This document shows, piece by piece, positions 24,997 through 31,599 of a stretch of 31,599 nt of DNA; the first letter of the stretch is position 1, and each line of letters starts with the position of its first letter. The stretch is from an uncultured Candidatus Bathyarchaeia archaeon. Its GTDB lineage: Archaea > Thermoproteota > Bathyarchaeia > Bathyarchaeales > DTEX01. The translations under genes were made by a program, and so were the position numbers. The DNA lies in assembly GCA_964539065.1 (NCBI GenBank), contig CAZIFH010000077.1, forward strand, positions 1 through 31,599. The letters are read 5' to 3'. The notes under the pieces are model-generated. The model had not been told where the DNA came from. It saw nothing but the letters and a program-made list of their open reading frames with translations, and did not search any database.

Positions 24997-25155
24997 ACTA
25001 ACCTTGCTCCTCGTCTAAAATTCTCATGATACAAAAATTAATTTTTCTAATAGAACTTTTATTGTTTTTGTAGCAGGGATCCCCTATTGGCTAAAATACT
25101 AATTGTACATTAATCTAGGAGTGGTAGAGCCGATGCTTTACGAAAGCAGAACTGC

Positions 25156-25538
25156 AAGTTGGATGCTACGATAAATATACTCACAAGTTTCTTTATGGAA
25201 TAGTCAGCATATCTCCACCAATAATTGGTATCTGCACTGCTACACTGGCTGCATGGTACCTTGCCATCGCGTTTGGAGAAGAGGCCTTCCATGGAATTGT
25301 AATATCCTTTGTGGAGACGCTTGCAACCGTGGAAATAACTATATCTGCAATGCTTATAGATCTGTGCTGACACCGCGAAGGATTAGCTAAGTAGCCTGGT
25401 TTAGGTAAAGAGGCTATTGAGGGTACGGATAAGCTGGATGCAGCGGACAAAACCACAAAAGCCATAACGAAAGGATTTGTCATAGGCGCCGCAGCACTTA
25501 CTGTTCCATCTCTTTTTGGGTTATACCCACCTAGTTGA
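25156..25538 (+). pseudogene. hppA: Internal remnant of a membrane-bound H+-translocating pyrophosphatase
   Basis: The plus strand reads KLDATINILTSF, then after a shift near 25190 YGIVSISPPIIGI...FHGIVISFVETLATVEI...TDKLDAADKTTKAITKGFVIGAAALT, which matches TDxLDAxGNTTKAxTKGFAIGxAAL. In-frame stops at 25368 and 25392. Confidence 0.8.
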
Positions 25539-25566
25539 TATAAACGTGGCTGACTTAAGATTGATG

Positions 25567-25773
25567 AGTACGGAAGTGATTGTCTTACTTTTCACGTCTA
25601 TGGCTTGGTCTATATTCTTCGGAGTGTTAGGTGCCATTCGAGACATCCCAACAAATGTTATGGAGTCGGCTGGAAGCTTCATCTTGACTGGATGGCGATA
25701 TGTTAGACACGTGATTCTGCCTGCGTTGAGAAGCCCAGCAATTATGTTTCTATACCTTTTAATTGCCGTCTAA
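25567..25773 (+). pseudogene. Fragment of an ABC transporter permease (nitrate/sulfonate-type)
   Basis: AWSIFFGVLGAIRDIPTNVMESAGSFILTGWRYVRHVILPA is an EAA-loop-like segment. Far too short for a full permease, and no ATPase or binding-protein genes nearby. Confidence 0.6.
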
Positions 25774-25849
25774 GTCGTATATCTCCATCTTTGTCCCTAA
25801 AGGAGGGGCTTAAAACTTAAAAGCGGGAGAGAGAACTGAACCTGGTAAG

Positions 25850-25947
25850 TGCTCCGGCCGGGATTTGAACCCGGGTTTGTGGCTTTCTCCAATCATATGT
25901 AGGGTTTCGAGAGGCCACCATACTTGACCGGACTATACTACCGGAGC
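25850..25947 (-). tRNA. tRNA-Glu(CTC) with a 23-nt intron at 37/38 (25885-25907), CCA not encoded
   Basis: Acceptor GCTCCGG/CCGGAGC, anticodon stem GTGGC/GCCAC, loop CT-CTC-G|intron|A, T-arm CCGGG-TTCAAAT-CCCGG. BHB central helix CUCU/GGAG. Confidence 0.95.
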
Positions 25948-26389
25948 ATTTTATGCGTCTTCCTAATTTCTTGATACACTATTTAGTCATATAAACTCAT
26001 GTTTGTTTTAGGTGTTTTAACAATCTGTTCAATTAAAGAGATATCTAAGTTGTTTTTAACGATGTTTCTGGATATATATTAATTAGCTATAGTTTATCAG
26101 TAAACAAACATTTTTAGTGAGAGAAATTTTTTGGTACTCTAATCGGTCTTATAAAACATTCTTCAATCTGTAGACAGTTATTAGTCATTTTCTGCTTTTT
26201 GATGAATTCTCCCATTTTTTACATGTTTAGAAGTTTGCTTACTTATTAACCGCATTTGTGTATATACTGTTACATGGTTTACAAACCACCCCTATCCTTT
26301 TAGTTTGCAATGCAATCTTTCATGAGCACTATACAACTACAAAAATTACCAGATAACTGGCAACAAAAAAATGTTATTTCATAAAATAG

Positions 26390-26519
26390 CGGGCCCGGAG
26401 GGAATTGAACCCTCGACCTACGGGTTTCTTCGCAAGATATTCTATGCTTAAGAGCTTCAGCCCATCTCATTATTGTAAATTTATTGGTCCGCCGCTCTAC
26501 CTTGCTAAGCTACGGGCCC
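26390..26519 (-). tRNA. tRNA-Lys(CTT) with two introns: 33 nt at 30/31 (26456-26488) and 23 nt at 37/38 (26426-26448)
   Basis: Acceptor GGGCCCG/CGGGCCC, T-arm GAGGG-TTCAATT-CCCTC. Removing both inserts gives the canonical GCGGG-CT-CTT-AA-CCCGT anticodon arm. Both inserts are flanked by BHB-type structures. Confidence 0.9.
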
Positions 26520-26631
26520 GTTTTTGATGATTAGGTAACTTATGGAAACTGCTAATAACCTTTTTCCTTAAAACTTATTATGATGGCTTTCTTGAAAAAA
26601 GTATTTTTGAAGCGAGTATAGAGGTCTAAGT

Positions 26632-27422
26632 ATGCTTGTTTTTGTTGGGTTAGGCCTTTTCGATGAGAATGATGTTTCACTTCGTGGATTAGAAGAAATT
26701 AAGATGGCAGACTATTTTCGGAGTTTTACACAATTCTGATGTCTGGTTTGGCATTGAAAAAACTAGAAAAACTGGTTGGAAAAAAGGTCAATAGTTGTTT
26801 CTCGGCAAATCTTAGAGGAAGAAAAAGGTGAAGTGATTCTTAGGAAGGCTGAATCTTCAAAGGTTGTTTTTCTAGCTCCAGGTGACCCTTTGATTGTAAC
26901 TACACATGTGGATCTTCTAATTAGGGCTAGAATGTGGAATTAAGACTCGTGTTGTGCATGGCATCTCAATCATTTCGGTATCTATGGGGATCTCTGGACT
27001 TCAGAACTACAGGTTTGAAAGAAGTGTTACAGTATCGTTTTCCAGAGGAAATGTTGTTTCTGAGACTCCATATAATGTGATTGCTGAGAACAAAGATAGG
27101 GACCTACATACCCTTTTTCTTGGACGTAAACGCGGAAAATAATCGGTATATGACTGTTAAGGAAGCACTCGAAACTCTTCTGTTGCTCGAGAATAAGAGG
27201 AAGGCTAATGTTGTACCTTTAAACAGCTTAGCCGTAGGCATAGCCAGAGCTGGAAGTGAGGACACGATTGTTAAGGCTAATTTTGTGAAGGACCTTTTAG
27301 GCTTTGATTTTGGAGGCGTGCCGCATGTGCTTGTTTTTCCCGCGGAAGACTTCGTTGTAGAGGCAGAGGCTCTTATCAGGCTTACAGATGCTCCAGCACA
27401 TGTGAGTAGCATGGTTAGGTGA
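26632..27422 (+). pseudogene. dph5: Diphthine synthase pseudogene, four frameshifts
   Basis: MLVFVGLGLFDENDVSLRGLE / EFYT.LM...LEKLVGKK / PGDPLIVTTHVDL / VVHGISII...[11 protein letters not shown] / LHTL.FLD...ARAGS...PHVLVFP...EAEAL. Shifts near 26719, 26790, 26935 and 27115. Confidence 0.9.
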
Positions 27423-27424
27423 TT

Positions 27425-27670
27425 ATGGATTTGAGTGAAATAGCTTCAAAATACGGAACGATTTTTGACAAAGATGAAACTTAATGAAAAATTATCTTCA
27501 GATTTGAGAGAAAAGGTTTTAGCAATTGTGTACAAGGCTAAAAGATATCTTGAAGATGCAAAGTATTATTATGAAAAAAGAGGTTCGATGCAATCTTGGT
27601 TTCAGTAGTTTACAGTGAGGGTCTATTGGATTCTTTGCGTATGCTTGGTTATGTTCAGTTTTCTTGGTAG
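27425..27670 (+). pseudogene. DUF357-like protein pseudogene, two frameshifts
   Basis: MDLSEIASKY / KMK...KVLAIVYKAKRYLEDAKYYYEK / FDAILVSVVYSEGLLDSLRMLGYVQFSW. The YLEDAKYY and Y.EGLLD.LR.LG motifs lie in different frames. Confidence 0.75.
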
Positions 27671-27681
27671 GTTACTCAAGA

Positions 27682-28149
27682 ATGGTTGAAGAAAAGAAGA
27701 AAACAGTGGTTTTGACTTCAGGAGCTTTCGATCTGCTACATTACGGGCACGTCTACTATTTAACTGAGGCGAAAAAGGTAGGAGGCGAAAACGCTAGGCT
27801 GGTCGTCATCGTCGCCAAGGACAAGACAGTTGAAAAGTTCAAGGGTAACAAGCCTATTATCCCCGAAGATCAGCGGAGAGCCGTAGTTGAGTCTCTGAAG
27901 GTTGTTGACGAGGCAATCTTAGGCTACGAGGATATGGACATGCTTCGAGTCATAGAAAAGGTTAAGCCCGACGTCATCGCCCTAGGTTACGACGAAGAAA
28001 GAATTGAAAGAGACCTCAAAAAACTTTTGGAAGACAAGGGACTAAACATTAAAGTTATAAGAATCAACCAGTTCACCGAAAAAGACCTCGTTAGCTCCTC
28101 AAAAATCAAGCGGAAAATAATCGAAAACTATCACGCGAACAAAACATAA
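27682..28149 (+). CDS. ribL: Archaeal FAD synthase (cytidylyltransferase superfamily)
   Basis: GAFDLLHYGH (HxGH), LVVIVAKD, PIIPEDQRRAVVESLKVVDEAILG, KPDVIALGYD, SSSKIK. Likely start ATG 27682. Confidence 0.8.
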   Translation: MVEEKKKTVVLTSGAFDLLHYGHVYYLTEAKKVGGENARLVVIVAKDKTVEKFKGNKPIIPEDQRRAVVESLKVVDEAILGYEDMDMLRVIEKVKPDVIALGYDEERIERDLKKLLEDKGLNIKVIRINQFTEKDLVSSSKIKRKIIENYHANKT

Positions 28150-28223
28150 GTTCTGTATAGACCTAAATTTTGCTATAGAAATTGGGAAAAAATGAAAGTG
28201 GTGGATTTATGGGAATTCTGTAT

Positions 28224-31200
28224 TCACTTATGAATTACTATGCTACCGCCACTAATAGCAGTTGTCAAGTCTACGATGTCTGAATCACCTATTTGGTTGT
28301 CATAGATTGTTGCACCTGTTTCTTTGTCCCAGATTCGTATTCTGAACATGTCTCCATCCTTAGAGCTGCCATCAACGATTGATAGTACGAAGCCGTAGTC
28401 TCCCGCACCGTTGACTGTACCAGATCCCTTACACATAGCTTTGTTTCCTGAAACCACCAGCCACTCGTATCCTGTACCCTTAAATTTGACGCTTGCAGAT
28501 GGGAAGTGAAACTCGAGGTTTCCAGTTGGAACATTTGTGCCTTTTAGATATTTCGAGACAAAGGAGAAGGTTGCTTTACCTGTAAGTTTGGGGTTGATGG
28601 TGTATGCTCCTGCTGGTGACTGTATCCATCCGCCGCCTGTGACAAAACCTGCATTCGGATCATAAACTGCAACGTACCCGAACTTTGCTGTGCCAGAATC
28701 GCCGTAATCGTCTGTTACAGTAAGCGTCACAATGTAGACGCCGGCCTCAGCATAAGTGTGCTGGCCATTTATCTGACCGCTTCCATCTGCCTCTATCACA
28801 GTACCTTCAGATGTGGTTCCGTCGCCCCAGTTCCAAACAGCTGTGTGGCTGTCGAGGAATCCTTCGTCGGTGAAGTATGCATAAGCAGTGATCTCATTAT
28901 TGATCGTCACAGGGTCTGTTGAAGCAACTATTGAGCTGATGACTGGTGCCACGTTTCTAACAGTCACGGTAAAGGAATCCGAGTTTAATCCTCCATCATC
29001 ATCCGTAACCGTTAATGTAACCGTGTAGGTGCCTTCTTTCCCATACTTGTGAGTAGGAGCCAACGAGTCTTTGCAATTTGTCCCGTCACCGAAGCTCCAC
29101 AAGACCATGTGACTGTCAGCTGCTCCTGGGTCCGAGAAGCTACCTGAAAAACTCACGAGGCTTCCCTCGTCGACGGTTTGGTCTTCGCCAGCTTCCACTG
29201 TTGGAGCCACGTTAAGTATCGAGACTGTAACTATTTCGGTGTCTGTTAAGCCATACTCGTCGGTGACTCTGACCGATGCTGTGATCACTCCATCATCCAC
29301 TGTGGGTACAGAGATGGTTGCTCCTTGAGCATCGTCGTAGTCTCCATCTGAATCTAGGTCCCAATCGTAATTCGCGATTGTTCCGTCAGGATCATATGAT
29401 CCTGTTGCATCCAGCCATATTACTTCTCCTTCACCTACACTTTCAGGAGCATTTATGGAGGCGATAGGTGGCTTGTTGATGTTAAAGGTTAACGTTGACG
29501 GCGCTTCCTGGTTTCCAGCGATATCCGTAGAATAGAAGCATACGGTGTGGTCTCCTGCCGTTGACACCGTTAGCGTATTTCCCTCGATGAAACTTGATCC
29601 GTCAAGCGACCAATATGTGCGGTCTACTCCTGAAGCTTCATCAGTGCCATGCAGGTTAACCACCACGTCTGAGATGAAAATTCCGCTGGGCGCCTGCTGC
29701 CCTAGAAGGGTAGCGGTTGTTTGAGGTGGTGTTTTGTCAATTTTGATTGTTGTTTGTTTTGTCGACTCTGTGTTTCCAGCCTTGTCTATTGAGTAGTACT
29801 GGATTACGTTTACTCCTTCTCGGCCTATTGTTATTGTGCCCAAATTGACTTCTTGATGTACGGTTCTCTGTAATAAAACGTTGTCGAATAACGCGTTAAC
29901 ATTTTGACCGTAGTCAGCCCAGGCGACTAGGCCAAATTTGCCTCTTGCTGCTTCAGGATCAAAAAACGTCAGACGACCTACCAAATAGTTGTCACCTAGC
30001 ATTCTTGCAGTTATTTGAAATATGCCCCCATCCTTTTTAACCGATAATACATACCATGAACCTAAAGAGATACCTTCACAAAAATACTCCATTTGTACGA
30101 CCACGCCATTTTTAACAACATACAGATATGAATAAGTAGGGCAGATTAGGCGAAGGGCATAGTAACTGTTTGTTAATTCATTGTAACCGAAAATCACCCC
30201 TCCTCCAGACGAAAAAGAATAGCTTTGAAGATTCACGTAGGTGGTTAGATTCCAATTGTCAAGCGAATCTGAGCCTGAAATTAGCGACTTCGCTACAACA
30301 CCTGCACCTGTACTTGCATTATAAATGCCGTTAATGACTGTCCATGTTCCGCTCTCAGGAACCCACTCTTGCTTCAATGCAGAGAAGTCATCATAGAAAA
30401 TGGTTTCCTGTTGGTAAACAAAGTCTTTGTAGTAGGTAAACCATTCACCTCCATTAACAACAAGCTTGGTTTCCAATGTGGCTCCGTCCGTAAAGTCGTT
30501 TGTCAAGTCGCTGCTGCTAAGTGAAATTTTAACGTCTGAGGTGTACCAGCCATTCTGGCCTAAAACGCCATCATCCACGCAGAGTTCTGTTTCAGGGCTC
30601 TGATTATCTCTATGATATAGGGACAGATAGTAACTGGCTTGATAATTTTTACAAATCCACATACCACCTTTTGGATTTCGCATGATTAGCGAAGGAGAAA
30701 ATGGATACAAGTTGATCTCATGGACAACTGTTCTAGTGCCACGATCGAAGAGAAGTATTCTTCTATTGCCTGAAGATGTGTCGCTGATCCATAATATACC
30801 TTGCTGGTCTATGTCCAAATAGTGATAGGTTTGATCACTTATTGGAAAAATGCTGATTTGTTGTATTGTGTTTGTTTTCGGATCATACTTTACGAATGGG
30901 TAGACTCCATAGTTCTGAGCATTAACTAAGGTCATCCAAACCATGCCAGCATTATCAACACATAGGGCATTTACGTAAAGATATTGTCCTCCGATTGGTA
31001 ACTGGTATGTAGTGTAGGTTTTGGTGGTAATGTTGAACTTGTAGAGTCGCTGATAAGAATTCAGCCAGAGATTTCCTTCGCTATCAACATATCTTATTCC
31101 TATATTACAAATATGCGGCACTGGATACACTGCTAAAGTGTCAGTGGCAGGGTTGTATTCGTAAAGGCATCTATATTCACCGTATCCCGGAGTTGGATTA

Positions 31201-31599
31201 TTATTTTCGATGTATACTAATCCGTTTTTGCCAACCACAACATTGCTAATCCAGATGTAATTCCCAATATTATAGGACTTTGTTGTAATGGTGCCTGTGG
31301 CAACATCAAATGAGTGGATCTTCAGATATGGATTGCTAGAAACTGCCATCCATATTTTCAGATTAGAATCAATATCCCATGAACTGACGCCAATTCCTGA
31401 TGGAAGAGGATAAAACACCTGGTTTCCTGTTTCAGCCTCAACCATCAGAAATCCTTTTAAACTGGCACTATATGAGCATGTCCACATATTACCGTTTACA
31501 TCTACCTTCCAATTGCTAGATGCAACCAGATAATCTTCGTAATGGAACATGTAAGGCTGCACGTCACCCTTAACTCCCACAAACCCAAAAGACGCTTCA
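28224..31599 (-). CDS. Large multidomain secreted/surface protein: beta-propeller, OmpL47-type Ig domains with inserted lectin-like domain, three PKD domains, conserved C-terminal beta domain (5' end outside window)
   Basis: The frame is open to the window edge (EASFGFVGVKG...). Repeating VD..G.lW blades; NGWYTSDV...YYSIDKAGNTE...IDKTPP; PKD motifs WSFGDG/HKY/YTVTLTVTDDDG; terminal GFVTGGGWI...GGSIVIHK. Confidence 0.85.
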   Translation of the reverse strand, partial: EASFGFVGVKGDVQPYMFHYEDYLVASSNWKVDVNGNMWTCSYSASLKGFLMVEAETGNQVFYPLPSGIGVSSWDIDSNLKIWMAVSSNPYLKIHSFDVATGTITTKSYNIGNYIWISNVVVGKNGLVYIENNNPTPGYGEYRCLYEYNPATDTLAVYPVPHICNIGIRYVDSEGNLWLNSYQRLYKFNITTKTYTTYQLPIGGQYLYVNALCVDNAGMVWMTLVNAQNYGVYPFVKYDPKTNTIQQISIFPISDQTYHYLDIDQQGILWISDTSSGNRRILLFDRGTRTVVHEINLYPFSPSLIMRNPKGGMWICKNYQASYYLSLYHRDNQSPETELCVDDGVLGQNGWYTSDVKISLSSSDLTNDFTDGATLETKLVVNGGEWFTYYKDFVYQQETIFYDDFSALKQEWVPESGTWTVINGIYNASTGAGVVAKSLISGSDSLDNWNLTTYVNLQSYSFSSGGGVIFGYNELTNSYYALRLICPTYSYLYVVKNGVVVQMEYFCEGISLGSWYVLSVKKDGGIFQITARMLGDNYLVGRLTFFDPEAARGKFGLVAWADYGQNVNALFDNVLLQRTVHQEVNLGTITIGREGVNVIQYYSIDKAGNTESTKQTTIKIDKTPPQTTATLLGQQAPSGIFISDVVVNLHGTDEASGVDRTYWSLDGSSFIEGNTLTVSTAGDHTVCFYSTDIAGNQEAPSTLTFNINKPPIASINAPESVGEGEVIWLDATGSYDPDGTIANYDWDLDSDGDYDDAQGATISVPTVDDGVITASVRVTDEYGLTDTEIVTVSILNVAPTVEAGEDQTVDEGSLVSFSGSFSDPGAADSHMVLWSFGDGTNCKDSLAPTHKYGKEGTYTVTLTVTDDDGGLNSDSFTVTVRNVAPVISSIVASTDPVTINNEITAYAYFTDEGFLDSHTAVWNWGDGTTSEGTVIEADGSGQINGQHTYAEAGVYIVTLTVTDDYGDSGTAKFGYVAVYDPNAGFVTGGGWIQSPAGAYTINPKLTGKATFSFVSKYLKGTNVPTGNLEFHFPSASVKFKGTGYEWLVVSGNKAMCKGSGTVNGAGDYGFVLSIVDGSSKDGDMFRIRIWDKETGATIYDNQIGDSDIVDLTTAISGGSIVIHK

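Follow-up and report, generated by a model that had tools for sequence, protein, structure and literature searches.

The diphthamide modification of EF-2 has long been held universal in archaea and eukaryotes. Within the pathway, Dph5 trimethylates ACP-EF-2, that is, EF-2 bearing the 3-amino-3-carboxypropyl-histidine (ACP) intermediate, and in yeast and mammalian dph5 mutants EF-2 stops at this intermediate and the cells are viable. To our knowledge, every loss of diphthamide described so far is a complete absence from entire clades. Lineages without diphthamide genes are Korarchaeota, Geoarchaea and most Asgard archaea (Narrowe et al., 2018; PMC6143161). Such archaea frequently possess a second, divergent EF-2 paralogue, and where no paralogue is present, the HxDxxHRG loop of the canonical EF-2 is conserved; Bathyarchaeota are not listed among the dph-lacking lineages, and the EF-2 pattern found there was called "puzzling" (PMC6143161). 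Loss of diphthamide genes in archaea is already known; here it is seen at the pseudogene stage, in Bathyarchaeia.

The DNA analysed here, hereafter the window, is an entire contig of 31,599 nucleotides (C77, 31.6 kb) from a Candidatus Bathyarchaeia metagenome-assembled genome (G000) of 1.35 Mb in 206 contigs, with a GC content of 38.6%, a completeness of 78% and a contamination of 0.3%, and the case rests on this one incomplete genome. The public runs that contain the stretch are hot-spring metagenomes, with no RNA run among them, and the closest Dph2 homologues bearing a source name come from Bathyarchaeia. The dph5 gene of the window is a decayed pseudogene, a conclusion that we hold with high confidence. 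We further consider it probable, if somewhat less firmly so, that the full explanation is a recent loss of function of the orthologous dph5, accompanied by decay of the adjacent DUF357 gene, with Dph2 intact and the target histidine of EF-2 kept.

The dph5 stretch holds no long open reading frame (the longest comprises 113 aa); five consecutive frame pieces (Table 1) jointly spell a whole diphthine synthase. Accordingly, TIGR00522 matches in three parts (model positions 1-100, 103-163 and 155-257; 70.8, 63.5 and 71.1 bits) and PF00590 matches the locus with E 2.6e-8 across 3 internal stops. The indels were called by DNA alignment with 10 intact orthologues, all of which are indel-free at these sites, and the mapped frameshifts (26714, 26790, 26928 and 27115) agree with those that the first-pass annotation had placed at about 26719, 26790, 26935 and 27115. 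The indels do not add up to a multiple of three, and the reading frame is therefore never recovered, whereas the orthologues are single frames of 265-363 aa (the family expectation being ~255-280 aa). Programmed frameshifting was rejected: the four shifts run in differing directions, and catalytic motifs are lost. The region from 25000 to 27660 (2.6 kb), which also includes the transporter remnant and the two tRNA genes of Table 1, is a small zone of decayed genes.

Table 1. Features of the dph5 region, in positions of the window.
Feature	Position	Strand	Basis or remark
ABC-transporter permease remnant, 85 aa	25516-25773	+	BPD_transp_1 positions 50-117 of 184
Second intron-bearing tRNA gene	25850-25947	-	
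Intron-bearing tRNA gene directly upstream of dph5	26390-26519	-	Rfam RF00005, 49.4 bits; same in G003, G005
dph5 (diphthine synthase) pseudogene	26632-27422	+	TIGR00522, PF00590, indels relative to 10 intact orthologues
dph5 frame piece 1	26632-26715	+	
dph5 frame piece 2	26718-26789	+	
dph5 frame piece 3	26791-26931	+	
dph5 frame piece 4	26933-27112	+	
dph5 frame piece 5	27114-27422	+	
dph5 frameshift 1, 4-nt deletion	after 26714 (26714-26716)	+	orthologues GAY TAY GTN TTY GCN; here GAC TA---- TTTT CG
dph5 frameshift 2, 1-nt insertion	26790	+	orthologue alignment
dph5 frameshift 3, 2-nt deletion	after 26928 (26928-26930)	+	RAxKRG region; orthologue alignment
dph5 frameshift 4, 2-nt deletion	after 27115 (27115-27117)	+	part of the conserved Cys codon (LHTLCFLD) gone
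dph5 in-frame 3-nt deletion	after 27352 (27352-27354)	+	His codon of the conserved P-x-x-x-LHF-x-E motif gone
DUF357 (PF04010) pseudogene	27426-27660	+	frameshifts ~27455-27480 and 1-nt deletion ~27585; 12-orthologue alignment
ribL (archaeal FAD synthase, cytidylyltransferase-like), open	27664-28149	+	PF01467, E 2e-19

Beyond the broken frame, the gene has lost residues that its relatives keep. A conceptual translation with X at the breaks was compared with 57 unique full-length orthologues, drawn from relatives and metagenome loci, and is changed at 5 of the 36 strictly invariant columns, whereas the other 57 sequences differ at 0.12 such columns on average and at no more than 1. The changes are A90V (in GDPLIATTH), G131E (in YRFGRS) and P137S, together with a missing L-H in LHF. 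The first-pass annotation had named an A-to-V change giving GDPLIVTTH, a G-to-E change giving YRFERS and the shortening of LHF to F-V, all of them at columns that are either invariant among the 57 orthologues or at least 95% conserved. Motifs still present in the pseudogene are GLGL.DE, GDP..TTH, ETPYN and LHTL.LD. The root-to-tip length in the Dph5 tree is 1.26, against 1.00 +/- 0.16 in the others, and Dph2 is average (0.66 vs 0.66). Thus, constraint on dph5 is relaxed, as seen from the excess of invariant-site changes and from a long terminal branch that is found for Dph5 but not for Dph2. The earlier description of a heavily decayed pseudogene is borne out by the four frame-breaking indels and by these residue changes. 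Judged from its sequence, the pseudogene cannot encode the enzyme.

For the remainder of the pathway, the first-pass annotation had advised a search for dph2, dph6 and all EF-2 copies and an inspection of the diphthamide histidine loop. The dph2 gene (contig C85) is an open frame of 336 aa (E 7.5e-90) with an average branch length; in a comparison with 119 homologues, none of the 31 invariant columns is changed and, of the 73 columns with a conservation of at least 97%, 1 differs, and we take its motifs GDPCYGACD, GQILGCDY and NTACPRIA to hold the three cluster cysteines. Its contig has a GC content of 38.9%, like this genome, as opposed to 45% in the abundant sister species. EF-2 is present as a single copy, with 91% identity to its closest congeners; the diphthamide loop reads HEDPVHRGPAQ, exactly as in these congeners and in relatives whose dph5 is intact. 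The conservation of the loop says nothing either way, because the loop stays conserved in several dph-lacking lineages (PMC6143161). As for dph6, it was not found in the 78%-complete assembly, with no remnant at E below 5. The dph6 neighbourhood of the type seen in G001 and G003 has no counterpart in the assembly except for a gene at the end of contig C54, and the dph6 flanks of the type seen in G002 and G004 lie inside contigs C34 and C88, without dph6. Both neighbourhoods known from congeners are either unassembled or rearranged in this genome, and at this completeness the negative result for dph6 is uninformative.

Across the same order (30 relatives, loci L139-L168), EF-2 comes in two types, ~50% identical to each other, which occur together in several genomes (G002, G005, G007 and G011); some relatives with intact dph5 have two EF-2 copies. 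HEDPVHRGPAQ is kept in both types; the copy found in G016 reads HEDQAQKGYAQ, with the target histidine lost, which fits the "puzzling" Bathyarchaeota EF-2 pattern reported by Narrowe et al. (PMC6143161).

Given that Dph2 is intact under normal purifying selection and that EF-2 keeps its target histidine, the established order of the pathway suggests that in these cells the modification of EF-2 probably ends at the ACP intermediate. Without trimethylation, no diphthine is formed that could be amidated to diphthamide, and it is likely that these cells would contain no finished diphthamide, provided that no second dph5 copy exists. Relaxation is so far visible neither in dph2 nor in the EF-2 loop, and for this reason the loss of dph5 is probably recent relative to the divergence within the genus; the decay comprises multiple hits, and so is old enough for fixation in the sampled lineage. 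An intact and constrained dph2 is unexpected had diphthamide long been dispensable, and it argues either for a recent event or for continued usefulness of the first step. Altogether, the findings are consistent with one population that lost the methylation step fairly recently, and do not point to a pathway loss that is far advanced; the pathway looks interrupted, not abolished. The proposal that this lineage is losing the pathway is supported in part: it fits the methylation step, for which dph5 is dead, but not evidently the pathway as a whole, in which dph2 is constrained, the loop is unchanged and EF-2 has no paralogue.

The decay does not stop at dph5. The DUF357 gene, which starts 3 nt past the dph5 stop codon on the same strand, is also a pseudogene (Table 1), with changes at conserved sites (FETSL to FDAIL and YCEG to YSEG); an intact orthologue (L023:5770-6027) matches PF04010 with E 1e-15, and the piece at 27465-27605 of the window covers positions 12-47 of 73. 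This decay is probably due either to dependence of DUF357 expression on dph5 in a shared operon or to a function tied to Dph5, the simplest cause being expression lost together with dph5. DUF357 is among the most widespread uncharacterised archaeal proteins, found in ~90% of archaeal genomes. The family (arCOG01224; TK1195, PDB 2OO2) has been ranked as a top-priority unknown archaeal protein and described as "tightly linked to DUF555 and cytidylyltransferase TagD" (PMC6393860). In relatives, the small gene between dph5 and ribL belongs to this family, and its link with the cytidylyltransferase (RibL) is confirmed here, including by gene fusions. We found no paper that states a link between Dph5 and DUF357, that study naming DUF555 and the cytidylyltransferase only; the joint breakage with dph5 in this genome and the phylum-wide association with dph5, in the form of fusions and shared absence, are not mentioned there.

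This association was surveyed in 150 genomes of the phylum with a completeness of at least 90%, and the outcome points to a functional tie. Both DUF357 and dph5 occur in 134 genomes and neither occurs in 13, the latter belonging to three families (f18, 10/10; f24, 2/2; f36, 1/1); one genome (G081) has dph5 only and two (G085 and G151) have DUF357 only. In f18 and f24, dph2 is likewise absent. A RibL homologue is present in 151/151 searched genomes, and in the dph-lacking families (all 13 genomes) it is a stand-alone frame of ~150-200 aa. In two genomes, G114 and G042, there is no DUF357 near RibL, and the ORFs beside it, judged by eye, resemble riboflavin kinase and endonuclease V. In a Pfam scan (loci L169-L176), five genomes checked, each of a different family, encode Dph5-DUF357 fusions (343-368 aa), and two further genomes encode DUF357-RibL fusions (230-238 aa); one Dph5 in the same scan is without DUF357. 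Conceivably, DUF357 works together with Dph5 as an accessory factor in diphthamide synthesis, and this genome would represent a fresh, independent joint death of the two genes with the FAD synthase gene open; we put this forward as a tentative reading, which we regard as somewhat doubtful. As a corollary, EF-2 may be held at the ACP-histidine stage by a still-selected Dph2. The loss events are few (three families and this genome) and kin are non-independent, so that the tie between DUF357 and diphthamide is a lead, not a result.

The predicted absence of finished diphthamide depends on the broken gene being the only one. The gene order tRNA, dph5, DUF357, ribL is common to G003, G005, L022, L023 and ~50 metagenome loci, and because of this conservation the broken dph5 is the orthologue and not a decaying extra copy. 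It is the sole PF00590/TIGR00522 locus in the 1.35 Mb assembly: neither a second dph5, for which the first-pass annotation had advised a search, nor any other gene of the TP_methylase family was found in this 78%-complete genome. It is nevertheless conceivable, although improbable, that the pseudogene is real and diphthamide is still made, either by a dph5 or another methyltransferase encoded in the unassembled 22%, or because the broken form is a minority or transient allele. The completeness of only 78% would leave room for such a gene, rare variants are dropped from contigs, and full constraint on dph2 and an unaltered EF-2 loop also speak for this reading. Several observations weigh against it: the broken copy is the syntenic orthologue, two full dph5 copies occur in 0 of 30 relatives, the contigs of four runs contain no alternative allele, and the closest full-length Dph5 to the C-terminal piece in a protein search is only 68% identical. 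The best metagenome loci, L022 and L023, are ~65-72% identical in dph5.

Among the same 30 relatives, all of the same order, 24 have dph5 as a single uninterrupted match, and dph2 and dph6 are each found in 29. Loss of dph5 in G001, G004 and G009 was rejected, as these assemblies break at contig ends beside the locus, and likewise in G005, where most genes of the region carry single frameshifts of the assembly-error type. The apparent dph5 defects of congeners are thus assembly effects and give no sign of a genus-wide trend. Comparison with sister genomes, which had been proposed as a check, accordingly shows dph5 intact in most relatives and lends nothing to the idea of a genus-wide loss.

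We next consider whether the breaks themselves could be technical. Every dph5 break lies in or beside a short T or A run, and consensus homopolymer errors or a strain mosaic might in principle have broken in the assembly a gene that is intact in the cells; we judge this very improbable. The region was obtained in identical form in an independent assembly of run X1, where a 999-nt contig matches 26566-27564 with 0 mismatches and 0 gaps, and the depth of this contig over dph5 is 13, a normal value beside the 15-19 of the organism's neighbouring contigs. Because X1 is possibly the source sample, the match tests the assembler and the read support and does not represent an independent population. 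When the assembled contigs of four public runs were compared with the window, no alternative dph5 indel allele was found, runs X3 and X4 containing little of the stretch, mostly as sister species or as fragments of depth 2-3 that are uninformative on the dph5 locus. Moreover, three of the four dph5 frameshifts are deletions of 2-4 nt, and hence unlike homopolymer miscalls; to these is added the in-frame 3-nt deletion, and the substitutions of invariant residues are beyond the reach of indel errors.

The same contig provides an internal control. Its core genes form 21 open ORFs (20,358 bp), 20 of them with a full-length Pfam match, among which are aIF5B, ADP-forming acetyl-CoA synthetase (ACD), 13 ribosomal proteins, NucS and a GH38 mannosidase. 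These genes contain 417 homopolymer runs of at least 4 (154 of at least 5) and 0 frame breaks, in agreement with the initial argument that intact core genes speak against assembly error; dph5 and DUF357 together have at least 5 frame breaks in 1,029 bp (Fisher p = 2.6e-7 against 0 in 20,358 bp).

A genome-wide pseudogene survey, based on 330 ORFs from 376 kb of the relative G011, of which 196 have a counterpart in this genome, found only about 3 of the 196 counterparts disrupted, namely those of a PriS-like protein (C117), an EamA transporter (C188) and an archaemetzincin (C168), all plausibly dispensable. The broken share of sampled genes, counting these three cases, is roughly 1.5-2.5%. In the archaemetzincin gene (Peptidase_M54; G000:C168:414-713) the HExxH region is out of frame, and the EamA gene (G000:C188:10562-11375) has one frameshift; two further candidates were dismissed, one on C184 (SUI1), with stops upstream of the real start, and one on C194, probably a shadow frame. 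The PriS-like gene, a second primase paralogue (G000:C117:6053-6802), has four +/-1 frameshifts at A5, T5 and A6 runs and retains its residue count and the catalytic SGRGFH.HV motif; it is probably a very young pseudogene. Shifts of this kind in the same assembly are a point in favour of an artefact, as is the congener G005, which shows that error-type frameshifts exist in assemblies of the genus, and as is a switch of lineage type in the contig at ~27720 (see below). However, the genome also contains an intact canonical copy of the broken PriS-like gene (PriS, C192:7552-8151), and breaks confined to a few dispensable genes form the pattern of real pseudogenes, the opposite of that in G005, in which single frameshifts are spread over most genes of the region. 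Thus, the dph5 disruptions are real and not technical.

Inside ribL, at ~27720, the contig switches abruptly to sequence of the sister-species type, which continues to the contig end (3.9 kb). From there on (27720-31599), identity to L023:6090-9981 (Ga0272448_1000059) is mostly 92-98% per 200-bp bin, with one bin at 84.5%, whereas over the dph5-DUF357 stretch the identity to L023 is only 61-72%; across the switch, GC increases from ~38% to 43-44%, L023 having 45%. In run X1, the L023-type sister species is ~7 times more abundant. The switch is either a chimeric join at the conserved stretch coding for GAFDLLHYGH or a recent recombination, which would have imported most of ribL and an 1118-aa surface protein. 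It does not touch dph5, but it means that the intactness of ribL rests mostly on sister-type sequence. That the dph5-DUF357 stretch was itself mis-joined or mis-binned from another, rarer organism, and would thus be uninformative on this genome, is the least probable of the alternatives: the ~27720 junction does unite two lineage types in one contig, and the link across the tRNA region (25850-26520), to which contigs from many organisms align, is less certain, but the depth (13 vs 15-19) and GC content (41% vs 38.6 +/- 1.6%) of the stretch fit the genome, a tRNA beside dph5 is the arrangement of the congeners G003 and G005, and any owner of the stretch would still have a dead dph5. The assemblies of three relatives are broken at dph5-DUF357-ribL, two of them of the same genus (G001, C45/C62; G004, C5) and one of the same family (G009, C4). 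These breaks, together with the lineage switch in the window, suggest that variation between strains or recombination is concentrated at this locus.

The death of dph5 alone, in a group whose relatives keep the pathway, shows a possible first step of diphthamide loss and offers a natural test of whether the ACP-histidine intermediate suffices for growth at high temperature. Furthermore, the co-decay of DUF357, its fusions with Dph5 and its absence shared with the dph genes provide a concrete, testable lead on the function of this family.

With respect to the known systems, the gene is recognisably that of the Dph5 family (TIGR00522; TP_methylase fold, PF00590), with homology over the whole model and its position kept, and differs from the other members in a frame broken four times. 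The state predicted for these cells, with Dph1/2-type activity present and Dph5 absent, would match that of the dph5 mutants of yeast and mammals, whose alleles come from the laboratory or from disease, whereas here the state would be that of a natural population known from its sequence. The likeness to the lineages described by Narrowe et al. (2018; PMC6143161) lies in the giving up of a normally universal archaeal EF-2 modification with the EF-2 loop kept. In contrast to this genome, in which dph2 is intact, those archaea lack dph2, dph5 and dph6 altogether, with no remnants described and the word "pseudogene" absent from the paper, and often have a second EF-2, which this Bathyarchaeia genome is without; here, dph5 is the only gene found dead, and it is still recognisable over its full length.
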